Below are positions 45,001 through 51,000 of a stretch of DNA of 64,000 nucleotides, piece by piece. The position numbers are program-made. The stretch lies in the IMG/VR virus record IMGVR_UViG_2880378312_000006. One strand, 5' to 3'. Source of the stretch: a virus (taxonomy: Duplodnaviria > Heunggongvirae > Uroviricota > Caudoviricetes). Position 1 is the stretch's first letter. Each line of letters opens with the position of its first letter.

Positions 45001-48000
45001 CGGGATACTGGTTACTGCAGCTGCTGGACAAAGTCTCTCCGTCCCAGTGGGTGGCGATAGGCGTGCTGGGGAGTCTGCTGTTTGGGCTGCTGACATATCT
45101 GACGAACCTGTATTTCAAGATTAAAGAAGACCGGCGTAAGGCGGCGCGGGGAGAGTAAAGTGATGAAGAAAAAATACGAACTGGTTGTTAAAGGGATAAA
45201 TAATTACCCGGATAAGATTACTGTTACTGTGGCACCGGAAATTGGTGGGTATCCGTCACTGTTGTTGCCAGATGTGGCGATTAGTCTTGACCGTACTGAA
45301 GGTGCCACGCTGGAGTTTTACGAAGCTGAGGCGAAAAAGCAGGCGAAGCAGTTTTTCATGGATGTTGCTGCCGGGTTATGTGAAGGGGATGGTCCGTTAC
45401 CGGAAAAGCGTCCCGTAATTTTAGAGGCGCAGGATGTGTTGATAACCTACAGAGGAAAACTACCGGGAATAATTACGGGTTCTCTGAAGACTCCACCGCT
45501 GGCCTGAAGACTTAACATATCCAGGGATTTGAAATCGATAAACCCTGATAAATATCCATGAACGCAAAAATCAGATACGGCCTGTCGGCTGCCGTTCTGG
45601 CGCTGATTGGTGCAGGGGCGTCTGCGCCTGAAATCCTCGACCAGTTTCTGGATGAAAAGGAAGGTAACCACACCACAGCATACCGTGATGGTGCGGGTAT
45701 CTGGACCATCTGCCGTGGAGCCACCCGGGGGGATGGTAAGCCTGTTATTCCTGGCATGAAGCTGTCGAAGGAAAAATGCGACCGGGTTAACGCCATTGAG
45801 CGTGATAAGGCGCTGGCATGGGTGGAGAAAAACATCAGAGTGCCGCTGACCGAACCCCAGAAAGCGGGGATCGCGTCATTCTGTCCGTACAACATTGGCC
45901 CCGGTAAGTGTTTCCCGTCGACGTTTTACAGACGGATTAATGCAGGAGATCGAAAAGGTGCCTGCGAAGCGATTCGCTGGTGGATTAAGGACGGTGGCAG
46001 GGACTGCCGTATTCGCTCAAATAACTGTTACGGTCAGGTATCCCGTCGTGACCAGGAGAGCGCGCTGGCGTGCTGGGGAATCGACAGATAAGCAGAATAT
46101 TTTGCTGAAAAATGAGGTTTGCTTATATGGACGGATAACACGAAATCCTGCAAATTGGCAAAATGTAAGTGAATAAAGTCAAAACAGTTGTTTAACACTC
46201 AGGCACCGTAATGATGCCTTTGTCATTTCTGCGCATCTCACGCGCATCTCACAACACAGAACCTTTCAGGATGACCCTTGAGGATACCGGTTTGGCTGTC
46301 GGTGCCTTTCTGTGGGCTGGATTCCTGTGAGACAAGGTTCATCACTAAAAGGAAATAACCGATGAATATGATGGCCGTGCCGTTTCACGGCAACTCTCTT
46401 TATGTAGTTAACCATAATGGCGAACCATACGTTCCCATGAAACCTGTCGTTGCGGGGATGGGGCTGGCCTGGCAATCACAGTTGGCTAAGTTAAGACAGC
46501 GTTTTGCGTCAACTATAACGGAAATCGTTATGGTTGCTGAGGATGGGAAACAACGCAATATGGTGTCCATGCCACTTCGAAAACTTGCCGGCTGGCTACA
46601 AACCATTAATCCCAACAAAGTAAAACCCGAAATCCGCGATAAGGTCATCCGGTATCAGGAAGAGTGCGACGATGTTCTTTACGAGTACTGGACGAAGGGT
46701 TTTGTCGTTAATCCCCGTAAAATGAGCGTGATGGAAGAACTCAACCAGGCTTGTGCTGACATGAAACGGGATAAAAACATTGCCAGTGTGTTTGCTACCG
46801 GGCTGAATGAGTGGAAACAGGTTAAAGCCGCGCATGTATCAAAAATCCGTACGCTGGTAAATGAAGCGAATATGCTGATTGATTTTGTCCTGGCTGATAC
46901 AGGCAAAGGGAAAATAACAAAGGCGGATTGATGGGGTGGCTAATGATATCAGATAAACTCATAACGCTGGTGAAGAGCCTCTGTGTACTTGTCGGCATTT
47001 CATTTTCACTAATGCTGGTTGCTCTTTTTCTTTCCATGGCCTGGATGGCGTTGACTTCGGCAGGGCTGGTGGGGTGAGCATAAACCGAATGCTTTCCGCG
47101 TTTACCGTTATTCTGCTGGTGGTCTGTGGTGCGCTTAGTCTGGGGCTGAATCATTACCGCGATAACGCCATAACCTACAAAGAGCAGCGCGATAAAAAAG
47201 TCAGTGAGCTGGAGCTGGCAAATGCAACCATTACTGATATGCAGCAGCGCCAGCGTGATGTTGCTGCACTTGATGCCAGATACTCGAGGGAATTAGCTGA
47301 TGCGAGAGCTGAAAATGAAACTCTGCGTGCTGATGTTGCCGCTGGTCGTAAGCGCCTGCGCATCAACGCCAACTGTCCAGGCTCCTTGCGTAAAGCCCCC
47401 ATCACCTCCGGCGTGGATAATGCAACCGGTCCCCGACTGGCAGAAGCCGCTGAACGGGATTATTTCATCCTCAGAGAACGGCTGATGGCAATGCAGAAGC
47501 AACTGGAAGGAGCACAGGAATATATCCGTACCCAGTGTATACCGTGATGTTTTGTTACGAAGGTGTTACTGGTAACGTTAAGGTAATTTAACAAAGAGTC
47601 AGTTCCGGACTTTATAGTGTGCTCAGTTCATGGCCAAAAACGATTTCTGTGATAAATATTTTGAATATTATTTACAGGTAAATGGAGTGGGGCACATGGA
47701 TAGAAATATTACAATAGAGTATGAAGTATATGCCCGTATTGTATGGGCAGAGAAGGCAAAAACATGGTAATTCCGTGTGTTGCCATGATACCTGATTGGC
47801 AGAATTGTTGTTTGGTTTTGAGTATATAGTCAGCGTCTTTTGTTCGGTAATTGCTCTTTCAATTAAAATGCCAGATATGATTTGCTTTTCTTTGTTGTTT
47901 AGTTTTTTTGTATATTATTTTTATTGTTTTTATATAATTAGTTTTTTATTGTTGTCTTATTAAGGACGGTAAATTCAGGATGGCAGTCTGTAGATAAACG

Positions 48001-51000
48001 GAGGTTACTTATGCTACATGATCACCTGGCAGAATGTCTGGAGAAAAAAGGACTGTACCGGAGAGCAGCTGAACGATGGGCAAAAGTGATGGTACAGCTA
48101 AGTGATGACCAGAAAAGAAAAGTGGCGGCACAGAAACGAGCAGAGTGTTTGCGTAAGGCGCGCCGGACTCCGGTTTCACCGGTGAACCTGACCGAAATAA
48201 AACAAGCGGTCAACAGACTACATTCTGAGTTGGGAATGGGATTTGAAGAGCGGCGGGTATTCCGACGATATAAAGGGACAGGAGAACAGAATACGTCCGG
48301 AAACGCGCGGTCAAAAAAATGCTAAAAAATATCTGAGAGCGTTATTGCCTGTTACCATAAGAAAAAGCGACTTTAGTGGTCGCTTTTTGTGTCATATATA
48401 AGTCGTTTAAGTAAACCTGTCTGAACAGGTTCTCTGGTCGTGTTTGTCTTTGTTGGGTACAAATTGAGAATATTTTTCATTAATTAATCTTCTTCTGCAG
48501 GCTTCAATAACCCACGCTGAAAAATTTCCTGAACCTTTCAGATCAAGAGCGATGTTAATTTGTTCAATCATCTGGTTTGGAAATCGGATGTTGCGGGTTG
48601 TTGTTCTGCGGGTTCTGTTCTTTGATGACATAATGTTGCCCCATATTCAGTGTTGCTGATTTGTATTATCTGAAGTTGCTTTTACGTTAATTTGATGCAG
48701 ATCAATTAATACGATACCTGCGTCATAATTGATTATTTGACGTGGTTTGATGGCGTAGATGCACGTTGTGACATGTAGATGATAATTATTATCATTTTGC
48801 GGGTCCTTTCCGGCGATCCGACCGGTTACGGGGCGGCGACCTCGCGGGTTTTCGCTATTTATGAAAATTTTCCGGGGAAAATCATGTCGGTACTTCTCGA
48901 ACATAACTATTTGTTTTTTCTAATATCGAATCCGTAAAGGTCCGACATGAAAACGCCTGAAAAAGTCATTTTCGGGCACTTTCATGTCGGACCCTGTATT
49001 TGTTGTGAGACTGTTTCATGAAGGTTAATAAAAAGAAACTTGCCGAAATTTTCAACGTGGATCCGCGAACGATTGAACGCTGGCAGTCTCAGGGGCTCCC
49101 TTGCGTCTCCGGAGGTGGTAAGGGCGTTGAATCTGTATTTGATACCGCCACGGCAATTCAGTGGTATGCGCAGAGGGAAGCTGATATCGAAAATGAAAAA
49201 CTCCGTAAAGAGGTTGAGGATTACAGGGCTGCCAGCGAGGCAGATCTCCAGCCTGGGACTATTGAGTACGAACGCCATCGACTTACGCGTGCGCAGGCTG
49301 ACGCCCAGGAGCTGAAGAATGCCAGAGACTCCGCAGAAGTGGTGGAAACCGCATTCTGTACTTTCGTGCTGTCACGGATCGCAGGTGAAATTGCCAGTAT
49401 TCTTGACGGGATCCCTCTCTCAGTACAGCGGCGTTTTCCGGAACTGGAAAACCGACATGTTGATTTCCTGAAACGGGATATCATCAAAGCCATGAACAAA
49501 GCAGCCGCGCTGGATGAACTGATACCGGGGTTGCTGAGTGAATATATCGAACAGTCAGATTGATATTCTGCGGCGTGATGTACGCGCCGGGCTGCGAGCC
49601 CTGTTCAGGCCGGAGCCACAGACTGCCGTTGAATGGGCGGATGCCAGTTACTATCTCCCGAAAGAATCCGCATACCAGGAAGGGCGCTGGGAAACACTAC
49701 CCTTTCAGCGGGCTATCATGAATGCGATGGGCAGCGACTACATCCGCGAGGTGAATGTGGTGAAGTCTGCCCGTGTTGGTTATTCAAAAATGCTGCTGGG
49801 TGTTTATGCCTACTTCATAGAGCATAAGCAGCGTAACACCCTTATCTGGTTGCCGACGGATGGTGATGCCGAGAACTTTATGAAAACCCACGTCGAGCCT
49901 ACCATCCGCGATATTCCGTCGCTGCTGTCTCTGGCCCCGTGGTATGGCAAAAAGCACCGGGATAACACGCTCACTATGAAGCGTTTCACCAATGGTCGTG
50001 GCTTCTGGTGCCTGGGCGGTAAAGCGGCAAAAAACTACCGTGAAAAGTCGGTTGATGTGGCGGGTTATGATGAACTTGCTGCCTTTGATGAGGATATTGA
50101 ACAGGAAGGCTCTCCGACGTTCCTGGGTGACAAGCGTATTGAAGGCTCGGTCTGGCCAAAGTCCATCCGTGGCTCCACGCCCAAAGTGAGAGGCACCTGC
50201 CAGATTGAGCGTGCAGCCAGTGAATCCCCGCATTTTATGCGTTTTCATGTTGCCTGCCCGCACTGCGGGGAGGAGCAGTACCTTAAATTTGGCGATAAAG
50301 AGACGCCGTTTGGCCTCAAATGGACGCCGGATGATCCCTCCAGCGTGTTTTATCTCTGCGAGCATAATGCCTGCGTCATCCGTCAGCAGGAGCTGGACTT
50401 TACTGATGCCCGTTATATCTGCGAAAAGACCGGGATCTGGACCCGTGATGGCATTCTCTGGTTTTCGTCATCCGGTGAAGAGATTGAACCGCCTGACAGT
50501 GTGACCTTTCACATCTGGACGGCGTACAGCCCGTTCACCACCTGGGTTCAGATTGTCAAAGACTGGATGAAGACGAAAGGGGATACGGGAAAACGTAAAA
50601 CCTTCGTGAACACCACGCTCGGTGAGACATGGGAAGCGAAGATCGGCGAACGTCCGGATGCTGAAGTGATGGCAGAGCGGAAAGAGCATTATTCAGCGTC
50701 CGTTCCTGACCGTGTGGCTTACCTGACCGCCGGTATCGACTCCCAGCTGGATCGCTACGAAATGCGCGTATGGGGATGGGGGCCGGGTGAGGAAAGCTGG
50801 CTGATTGATCGGCAGATTATTATGGGCCGCCACGACGATGAACAGACGCTGCTGCGTGTGGATGAGGCCATCAATAAAACCTATACCCGCCGGAATGGTG
50901 CAGAAATGTCGGTATCCCGTATCTGCTGGGATACTGGCGGGATTGACCCGACTATTGTGTATGAACGCTCGAAAAAGCATGGGCTGTTCCGGGTGATCCC

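Follow-up and report, generated by a model that had tools for sequence, protein, structure and literature searches.

The region between Rz and cos in a 64-kb lambdoid virus sequence matches the pchB cassette of Escherichia coli O157:H7 prophage Sp11

The region between the lysis genes and cos in the window (the whole stretch of 64,000 nucleotides that was analysed) is, with a probability of roughly 95%, the pchB cassette of the lambdoid prophage Sp11 of E. coli O157:H7, which encodes a PerC-family activator of ler/LEE1. Positions 47548-48850 were identical to the pchB locus of strain Sakai at 1303 of 1303 nucleotides (100% identity; NC_002695.2, 2,182,376-2,183,678, annotated as pchB and 'prophage Sp11'), and comparison of the ORF at 48011-48325 with Sakai pchB revealed no difference. 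The same 100% match was obtained with many O157:H7 genomes, in which the genes are annotated as PerC family transcriptional regulator and YlcI/YnfO family protein. In addition, the gene order Rz, pch, ylcI-like gene, cos, and Nu1 is common to the window, Sp11 (pchB), Sp4 (PchA), and Sp14 (PchC). Because the biology of pchB is all published, its identity and role are already known, and the match adds only the correct annotation of the 64-kb window. The features of the locus are as follows.

47074-47547, plus strand: spanin gene Rz, containing Rz1 at 47300-47485 (Pfam Phage_lysis, E 1.3e-46); last lysis gene and left cassette border.
47548-47860, plus strand: conserved 5' segment of the DNA between Rz and pchB, 36.7% G+C, near-identical 5' of pchA, pchB, and pchC by three-way alignment.
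47630-47770, plus strand: 46-aa ORF inside the conserved block, matching phrog_2157 over its full length (E 1e-37).
47637-47677, no strand assigned: 41-nt block with the imperfect palindrome CTGTGATAAATATT-TTG-AATATTATTTACAG (47647-47677), invariant in all upstream-region haplotypes.
47861-47975, plus strand: T-rich hypervariable segment, 19% G+C (65 T in 115 nt), directly 5' of the ribosome-binding site.
48000-48004, plus strand: Shine-Dalgarno sequence GGAGG, 6 nt 5' of the pchB ATG, as read from the sequence.
48011-48325, plus strand: pchB, PerC-family regulator and ler/LEE1 activator, 104 aa; protein identical to Sakai ECs_2182.
48362-48388, no strand assigned: two-way intrinsic terminator hairpin AAAAAGCGAC-N7-GTCGCTTTTT, a perfect 10-nt inverted repeat between the convergent pchB and ylcI-like genes.
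48407-48631, minus strand: YlcI/YnfO-family (DUF3950) gene encoding a basic 74-aa protein (Pfam DUF3950, E 1.8e-18).
48484-48497, no strand assigned: right cassette junction from blastn end-points, where lambda, Sp8, and Stx2 phage homology resumes (codons 45-50 of the ylcI-like gene).
48831-48842, plus strand: cosN cohesive end GGGCGGCGACCT, from alignment with lambda and Sp8.
48882-48993, no strand assigned: cosB-like region with three TCATGTCGG(T/A)CC elements, putative terminase-binding sites judged from position and geometry.
49018-49563, plus strand: Nu1 small terminase subunit gene (Pfam Phage_Nu1, E 4.4e-91), the first gene past cos.

The sequence-only reading had recognised a PerC/Pch-like protein of 104 residues by its GLYRRAAERW motif, and profile and alignment searches bore this out. 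The pchB product scored 148.8 bits against Pfam PerC PF06069 (E 5.4e-44; curated cut-off 22.6 bits), with residues 1-89 placed on profile positions 1-89 of 90, a score far beyond chance. The motif, G14-L-Y-R-R-A-A-E-R-W23, is encoded at 48050-48079, and G14, R17, R18, A19, R22, and W23 were invariant in an alignment of six proteins (PchA-E and EPEC PerC). In the comparison with PerC and PchA-E that had been proposed as a check, the protein was identical to PchB, and PchB showed 99% identity to PchA and to PchC, 40% to PchE, 28% to PchD, and 47% to EPEC PerC (over 87 residues; BLASTP E 1e-27). PchA and PchC each differ from PchB by a single residue (L6V and V58M, respectively), and the three genes are told apart by nucleotides 16, 172, and 183 of the 315-bp ORF (PMC5931665). 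The window ORF carries C16, G172, and C183 as does Sakai pchB; pchA has G16, and pchC has A172 and A183. Group-1 pch was present in 669 of 5,426 complete E. coli genomes, with a median of three copies, and 683 of the 684 records reached 99% identity or more.

The function of the identical protein has been assayed previously. PchB supplied in trans raised the activity of a chromosomal ler::lacZ fusion in MG1655 ΔyfdN from ~1,577 to ~12,513 Miller units (PMC5931665), and this ~8-fold increase answers the ler reporter check suggested earlier. The proposed coupling of prophage carriage to type III secretion is likewise established (PMC4456613, citing Iyoda and Watanabe 2004; PMC4764244; PMC3355084). 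The pchB gene belongs to the prophage-borne master switches of the EHEC type III secretion system (LEE) and is a textbook example of how prophages rewire the regulation of host virulence. At LEE1, Pch lowers the binding of H-NS, and H-NS regions contain 88% of the Pch sites (PMC4764244). Regulated pch promoters have been reported (PMC7279287, PMC4456613): pchA and pchB are under positive control by LrhA (Honda 2009, cited in PMC4456613 and PMC13012123), and Lrp/butyrate acts on PpchA (PMC7279287). Moreover, the SOS inducer SMX-TM increased group-1 pch at 12 h (PMC5931665).

The pchB copy itself could be largely redundant or silent, with control of LEE resting in practice on pchA and/or pchC. 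The one-residue differences among PchA, PchB, and PchC fit such redundancy, as does SNP-resolved RNA-seq of strain PA20 under SMX-TM, in which pchC reads were ~8 times those of pchB (RPKM ~91 vs. ~11) and the increase for pchB lacked significance (PMC5931665); how much the pchB copy contributes therefore varies by strain and condition. However, of the three proteins supplied in trans, PchB activated ler most strongly (PMC5931665), deletion of pchA and pchB reportedly phenocopies a ler deletion (PMC13012123, citing Honda 2009), and LrhA is reported to act on pchB as well as on pchA (PMC4456613). We therefore regard redundancy or silence of this copy as unlikely.

As the literature shows for this protein family, PchB, together with the near-identical PchA and PchC, binds AT-rich DNA within H-NS-silenced regions and loosens the complex of H-NS, StpA, and Hha that occupies the LEE1 promoter. 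This switches on ler, a step documented for the exact protein, and then the complete type III secretion system of the LEE together with effectors encoded on prophages. Published work also shows that host regulators, by acting on the AT-rich DNA upstream, control expression, namely LrhA for pchA and pchB, and Lrp/butyrate and NtrC for pchA. It is plausible that H-NS binds and silences the AT-rich stretch upstream of pchB. Furthermore, since pchB points in the same direction as the late operon, Q-antiterminated late transcription may read through it upon prophage induction, a suggestion drawn from gene order.

The AT-rich DNA ahead of the PerC-like gene, put at about 450 bp in the sequence-only reading, measured 463 bp from the Rz stop (47547) to the pchB ATG (48011), and its G+C content was 33.0% vs. 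51% for the whole window; equally AT-rich 463-bp windows make up 1.1% of the 64 kb. The term leader, used for this DNA in that reading, is unproven. Nucleotide diversity among 45 haplotypes was 0.00-0.075 across 47591-47848, and 0.06-0.21 with indels across 47861-47975, where discrete pchA-, pchB-, and pchC-type alleles were found and the window carries the pchB type. The T-rich variable segment may underlie different regulation of the three pch copies. No sigma-70 site upstream of pchB emerged from a consensus scan; the pchB-type allele alone contains a perfect TATAAT (47933-47938), a candidate promoter element read from the sequence. The GGAGG of pchB was kept in every haplotype class except one. 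The 41-nt block, a candidate site for regulator binding, did not vary among 17 distinct haplotypes whose overall identity fell as low as 88%.

Two other readings of the conserved part were weighed. The 46-aa ORF might be a real gene, in which case pchB would be the second gene of a two-gene unit; its full-length phrog_2157 match (E 1e-37) points that way, as do its presence with pch in every IMG/VR locus extending far enough and its intact frame in 40 of 45 haplotypes. However, its variable sites fell at codon positions in a ratio of 11/12/7 with no third-position enrichment, non-synonymous changes outnumbered synonymous ones (25 vs. 6), its ATG lacks a Shine-Dalgarno sequence, searches of Pfam and NCBIfam gave no match, and PGAP annotation of O157 genomes omits it. 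The ORF is thus probably not protein-coding, and a two-gene unit appears very improbable.

Alternatively, rather than serving as promoter/operator DNA, the 463 bp could be a lengthy, structured 5' UTR, or contain a small RNA, and in this way control pchB post-transcriptionally. Positions 47620-47769 folded better than 200 of 200 shuffles (z -2.69), and the strong conservation of 47591-47848 across 45 haplotypes, in a part with no convincing protein-coding gene, would suit an RNA. Yet none of the 59 predicted pairs showed a compensatory change (covariation term -0.1), an Rfam search returned no family match even at E up to 1, and the segment around the ribosome-binding site was not unusually structured (z +0.32). 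Moreover, the published pch regulators LrhA, Lrp, and NtrC are DNA-binding transcription factors (PMC4456613, PMC7279287, PMC13012123), and a protein-binding site would account equally well for the invariant 41-nt block, a palindrome in the DNA. An RNA leader consequently seems rather doubtful, and promoter/operator DNA is the reading that we prefer.

Homology to Rz ended at 47525 for lambda and Sp8 and at 47539 for Stx2 phage. The pch cassette thus spans ~960 bp (47548 to ~48490) and includes the last 25 codons of the 74-aa gene. It takes the place of lambda bor-ybcV-ybcW, in agreement with the earlier remark that lambda carries bor and small ORFs between Rz and cos. Its G+C content was 38.6% vs. 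52.5% for Rz and 50.7% for Nu1. The hairpin at 48362-48388, which a simple terminator scan did not list, folded on both strands followed by U-runs (z -2.4 and -2.9) and was invariant among pchA, pchB, and pchC. The cassette accordingly shows the characters of a moron: a slot filled differently in relatives, deviant G+C, and its own terminator. The same cassette with the same spacing was found in 61 IMG/VR loci in which the adjoining Nu1 ranged from 100% down to 34% identical or was absent; the cassette moves between lambdoid phages of at least five small-terminase types. This movement was not found stated in the literature consulted, nor were the exact cassette borders relative to lambda, the supply of the ylcI-like 3' end by the cassette, or the concentration of differences among pchA, pchB, and pchC loci in the T-rich 110-bp segment.

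A cos site had been placed just past the 74-aa ORF, and the lambda cohesive-end sequence at 48831-48842 is there. The right end, with the cosQ region, is lambda-like from ~48640 to 48877, where it is near-identical to lambda; 48497-48875 was 91.8% identical to lambda. The lambda cosB sequences R3, R2, and R1 were absent from the cosB-like region, which instead carries TCATGTCGG(T/A)CC elements in the same arrangement (48882-48893 forward, 48939-48950 inverted, and 48982-48993 forward). This implies that the cosB/Nu1 specificity differs.

The coordinates and basic character given earlier for the 74-aa ORF held (net charge ~+8; 15 K/R vs. 7 D/E by residue count), but its description as divergent from pch did not: the gene lies tail-to-tail with pchB, 81 nt apart, and is divergent only relative to Nu1 and cos. 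A specific link of this ORF to the function of pch was not supported either. The protein scored 66.6 bits against Pfam DUF3950 PF13132 (cut-off 25) and 34.6 bits against NCBIfam NF041551 (cut-off 30). Residues 1-49 are common to lambda and Stx phages and residues 50-74 belong to the pch cassette. The window, lambda, Sp8, Sp14, an Stx2 phage, and 80 IMG/VR loci each have a DUF3950 gene beside cos and the gene for the small terminase subunit, in the opposite orientation; the lambda homologue is present and unannotated in NC_001416, and the gene is also without annotation in Sakai RefSeq. At the Sakai pchA locus, IS629 interrupts the ylcI-like ORF.

Such an ORF could have arisen by chance or be a decaying remnant, its conservation reflecting DNA-level constraint near cos or recent shared ancestry. 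The missing annotations are compatible with this explanation, as are a promoter prediction that gave none for the ORF, local DNA that is 92-94% identical among lambdoid phages anyway, and C-terminal tails that are highly variable and often frameshifted-looking. However, of the 43 sites that varied within the first 150 nt among 44 haplotypes, 27 were third codon positions (10 and 6 at the others), synonymous changes exceeded non-synonymous ones there (31 vs. 21), and this codon-position bias indicates that the gene is under purifying selection. Diversity in the gene was 4-5 times below that of adjacent non-coding DNA, a contrast partly inflated by non-homologous cos modules there. In addition, the N-terminal 49 residues were near-invariant across 943 protein clusters, curated Pfam and NCBIfam families exist, and K-12 ylcI is transcribed, being listed in convergent overlap with ybcW (PMC12288877). 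A chance or decaying ORF is thus highly unlikely. The ylcI-like gene is a separate and widely conserved lambdoid gene.

A ribbon-helix-helix fold is weakly suggested for the 74-aa product, which would be a small DNA-binding protein. A speculative and quite improbable extension is that the DUF3950 protein is an overlooked lambda-family gene product, possibly of this fold, that acts as a regulator of the adjoining cargo, bor/ybcW in lambda and pchB in the window, or of a process near cos. Candidate operators could be the 41-nt palindromic block or a conserved palindrome 5' of its own start (48701-48733). If true, the cassette-specific C-terminal tail would tie the protein to pchB and add a further phage-encoded layer of LEE control.

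Among known systems, the lambda bor region (bor-ybcV-ybcW) occupies the same lambdoid slot and flanks as the pch cassette, with homology stopping at the Rz end and resuming in the ylcI-like ORF, and both carry host-affecting cargo of lower G+C with its own terminator; their content is unrelated, and bor lies on the opposite strand whereas pchB lies on the late-operon strand. Compared with the pchA and pchC loci, the window locus carries a different allele of the ~110-bp T-rich segment. EPEC PerC, from the EAF plasmid pMAR2, shares the Pfam family and the G-x-[YW]-R-R-A-x-x-R-W motif with PchB and, like it, activates LEE1/ler (PMC4456613). However, PerC is an 89-aa plasmid-borne protein encoded in the perABC operon under PerA, whereas PchB has 104 aa with a basic C-terminal extension and is prophage-borne, a single-gene unit, and present in several copies. 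YlcI (DLP12) and YnfO (Qin) of E. coli K-12 share the family and the near-invariant N-terminal 49 residues with the 74-aa protein, and their genes likewise lie directly upstream of a Nu1/noh gene on the opposite strand; in contrast, the C-terminal 25 residues of the 74-aa protein, INEKYSQFVPNKDKHDQRTCSDRFT, are specific to pch-carrying phages. For the putative fold of the 74-aa protein, the comparison is with ribbon-helix-helix antitoxins and repressors (KacA, TacA, and the CopG/Arc/MetJ type).

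The locus is pchB of prophage Sp11, a well-characterised and already known gene. Positions 47548-48850 of the window are 100% identical over 1303 nt to Escherichia coli O157:H7 Sakai (NC_002695.2, 2,182,376-2,183,678). This part of the Sakai record carries the feature label "prophage Sp11, lambda-like phage", and the ORF there is annotated as pchB (ECs_2182). A perfect match to the locus was also found in many complete O157:H7 genomes, and window 41226-63996 matched Sp11 at 99.7%. Residue for residue, the 104-aa protein is PchB; single changes set it apart from PchA (L6V) and PchC (V58M), and the nucleotides at the three positions distinguishing pchA, pchB and pchC (16, 172 and 183) are C, G and C, the pchB state. 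The stretch is late-region DNA from a lambdoid prophage and is arranged as follows.

Gene order and features around pchB (window coordinates)
47074-47547: Rz, containing Rz1
463 bp between Rz and pchB: intergenic region, in three parts
47548-47860: conserved block, diversity mostly below 0.05
47861-47975: T-rich segment, variable and indel-rich, with discrete pchA-, pchB- and pchC-type alleles
conserved 35 nt with GGAGG (48000-48004) and the ATG
48011-48325, + strand: 104-aa ORF, pchB
81-nt gap between the 104-aa and 74-aa ORFs
48362-48388, both strands: terminator hairpin AAAAAGCGAC-N7-GTCGCTTTTT, followed by U-runs (z -2.4 and -2.9)
48407-48631, - strand: 74-aa ORF, ylcI-like
between the 74-aa ORF and Nu1: lambda-like cos site
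49018-49563: Nu1

The PerC-like ORF, the AT-rich stretch and the 74-aa ORF were all found where the sequence-only reading had placed them, and its description of the 74-aa ORF as divergent holds relative to Nu1 only, the arrangement with the PerC-like gene being tail-to-tail. A 49-aa hydrophobic ORF (46928-47077) between an antirepressor-like gene and Rz is labelled "hypothetical" in the PGAP annotation of O157 genomes and has a full-length match to phrog_4906.

The proposed PerC/Pch similarity was borne out by alignment. The protein matched Pfam PerC with 148.8 bits (cut-off 22.6) and shared 47% identity over 87 residues with EPEC PerC from pMAR2 (E 1e-27), 40% with PchE and 28% with PchD; G14, R17, R18, A19, R22 and W23 are invariant in the alignment with PerC and Pch proteins. 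Among 5,426 complete E. coli genomes, 669 had group-1 pch genes (pchA, pchB and pchC); the median copy number was three (1-5), and identity reached 99% or more in 683 of 684 records. Variable sites of pchB fell 10/1/10 by codon position, with 13 synonymous vs 9 non-synonymous changes. A single-sequence AlphaFold model of PchB was predicted to be all-helical with a mean pLDDT of 50.5, too poor for a fold search, and a PDB sequence search with PchB and the YlcI-like protein gave no meaningful match. The PerC motif resembled TPR with E 1.6; this and a single 14-bit PADLOC match were taken as chance.

In the summary that PMC4456613 gives of Iyoda and Watanabe (2004), pchABC are three functional PerC homologues on O157:H7 lambdoid prophages that are required for full LEE expression and adherence. 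With PchB supplied in trans, the activity of a chromosomal ler::lacZ fusion rose from ~1,577 to ~12,513 Miller units, an effect stronger than that of the other two group-1 proteins (PMC5931665). Pch sites are in low-G+C DNA, 88% of them within H-NS-bound regions; the protein lowers H-NS/StpA occupancy, alters the nucleoprotein complex at LEE1 and acts as a co-activator alongside Ler at other LEE promoters (PMC4764244). Inputs upstream of pch include LrhA, which acts on pchA and pchB (Honda 2009, as cited in PMC4456613 and PMC13012123), butyrate, which acts through Lrp on the pchA promoter (PMC7279287, PMC4456613), and NtrC/glutamine (PMC13012123). At 12 h, the SOS inducer SMX-TM had raised the levels of group-1 pch transcripts; the increase was significant for pchC, and for pchB it exceeded 3-fold but fell short of significance (PMC5931665). 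Thus, the ler activation on which the sequence-only reading had staked its interpretation is already in print for PchB (PMC5931665), and PMC3355084 openly takes the view that type III secretion is under a network of prophage-borne regulators. The earlier interpretation of the locus was right, and its own refutation tests had been passed in published work.

The 463-bp intergenic region has 33% G+C, vs 51% for the window, and contains a 115-nt core of 19% G+C and 57% T. Comparing 45 distinct haplotypes, together with the pchA, pchB and pchC loci, gave its division into three parts, and the variable segment may explain why pchA and pchB are reported to be regulated differently. The name "leader" for this region is unproven, as no consensus promoter was found: a sigma-70 consensus scan predicted none ahead of either pchB or the ylcI-like gene, with counts no higher than in shuffles. 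The consensus terminator scan likewise gave counts no higher than shuffled controls and overlooked the obvious hairpin terminator. A perfect TATAAT (47933-47938) is unique to the pchB-type allele of the variable segment and has no good -35 partner; pchA has GCGTGG at this position and pchC CTGTGA.

Within the conserved block, a 41-nt stretch (47637-47677) that is invariant in 17 haplotypes contains an imperfect 31-bp palindrome, and is a candidate protein-binding site. The 15-mer TTTTGAATATTATTT at 47659-47673, in this invariant block, recurs with one mismatch at 47906-47920 in the pchB-type variable segment, 247 bp downstream, possibly by chance in such AT-rich DNA. As RNA, the conserved block has a thermodynamically stable fold (z -2.69), and no covariation was detected in the 17 haplotypes, which are too alike to decide. 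Rfam searches of 46000-50000 with E up to 1 returned only sub-threshold eukaryotic families (MIR8001 and PVT1), and no match in the pchB region was obtained at the gathering threshold across the whole window. Two upstream ORFs were rejected as genes. The 46-aa ORF of the conserved block has a PHROG family (phrog_2157) and accompanied pch in all IMG/VR loci extending far enough; it lacks a coding signature, its variable sites falling 11/12/7 by codon position with 6 synonymous vs 25 non-synonymous changes. A 55-aa ORF was intact in only 7 of 45 haplotypes.

The only loose end of some potential is the role of the conserved DUF3950 protein and any tie to its neighbour. The 74-aa protein is a YlcI/YnfO family member (Pfam PF13132, NCBIfam NF041551; DUF3950 match of 66.6 bits, cut-off 25). 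Its 64-aa lambda homologue lies just left of cos on the - strand of NC_001416.1 (~48112-48306; also 2441-2635 of another compared locus, L005); it is "hypothetical" in one lambda record and has no feature in the reference record, and the Sakai RefSeq table lacks the ylcI-like gene between ECs_2180 and ECs_2182. A large protein database contained 943 clusters of the family, all enterobacterial, in which the N-terminal 49 residues are nearly invariant and the tails are variable and of very different lengths. Among 44 DNA haplotypes, the first 150 nt had 43 variable sites, 27 of them at the third codon position, vs 10 and 6 at the others, and synonymous changes outnumbered non-synonymous ones (31 vs 21). 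Diversity was 4-5 times below that of the upstream non-coding DNA, some segments of which are non-homologous cos modules, a caution on this last comparison. Together, these patterns argue for selection on the protein. K-12 ylcI is listed among convergently overlapping transcript pairs, as ybcW-ylcI (PMC12288877), so the family is transcribed. We found no functional study of the YlcI/YnfO family in the literature, and a Foldseek search of the PDB with the YlcI model yielded no match. A palindrome, ATCAATTA-N17-TAATTGAT (48701-48733), precedes the ylcI-like start codon by 70-100 bp; lambda and Sp8 retain it, and it could serve as an operator for this putative ribbon-helix-helix protein.

In lambda and Sakai Sp8 the order is Rz-bor-ybcV-ybcW-ylcI-like-cos-Nu1. 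Homology to both stops at 47525 and restarts at 48484-48497, and an Stx2 phage match runs up to 47539 and then again only over 48497-48631; where lambda carries a ~1.75-kb bor region, ~960 bp lie here. Since the right junction falls within the ylcI-like gene, at codons 45-50, the last 25 codons of this gene, its stop and the shared terminator come from the cassette. Among the best 80 IMG/VR loci with a YlcI relative, 62 had the INEK...CSDRFT-type tail, and pch lay at the same spacing in 61 of them, the lone exception (L060) ending at a contig end; pch was found in 0 of the 18 loci with other tails. Nu1 beside the cassette ranged from 100% down to 34% identity or was a different protein altogether. 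The cassette therefore travels as one unit between lambdoid phages whose packaging modules differ. In the phage collection, no complete phage genome carried it, and only two short EDL933-derived fragments have it. The Sakai pchA cassette (Sp4, 13150-14215 of locus L002) is in an inverted segment with IS629 inside the ylcI-like ORF; pchA is therefore without its cos-proximal neighbour, and pchB and pchC keep theirs.

Elsewhere (1-12300 and 16524-18970), the window opens within the tail/tail-fibre region of a second lambdoid prophage, at 87-94% identity to Sp11/Sp14-type tail genes, and carries an ISEc8-like element with 99.9% identity to the Sakai copy. It therefore takes in two closely spaced prophages.

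Known RNAs elsewhere in the window (all reaching Rfam gathering scores, two of them prophage tRNAs)
29593-29644, - strand: DicF
36854-37028, + strand: sok antitoxin RNA
42344-42516, + strand: STnc100
41322-41397, + strand: tRNA with anticodon CAT, tRNA-Ile in O157 genome annotation
41498-41574, + strand: tRNA-Arg (TCT)

Beyond the ylcI-like gene, lambda-like DNA extends from ~48640 to 48877 and includes the 12-nt cohesive end (48831-48842). The R2/R1-like pair of elements to its right forms a 25-nt inverted repeat, and this palindrome gives rise to the spurious MIR8001 match. In place of lambda's R3, R2 and R1, window 48882-48993 carries three TCATGTCGG(T/A)CC elements, likewise ordered forward, inverted, forward. 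The cosN and cosQ side is thus lambda-like, yet the cosB region is unlike that of lambda, and these elements suggest that cosB/Nu1 specificity differs from lambda's.
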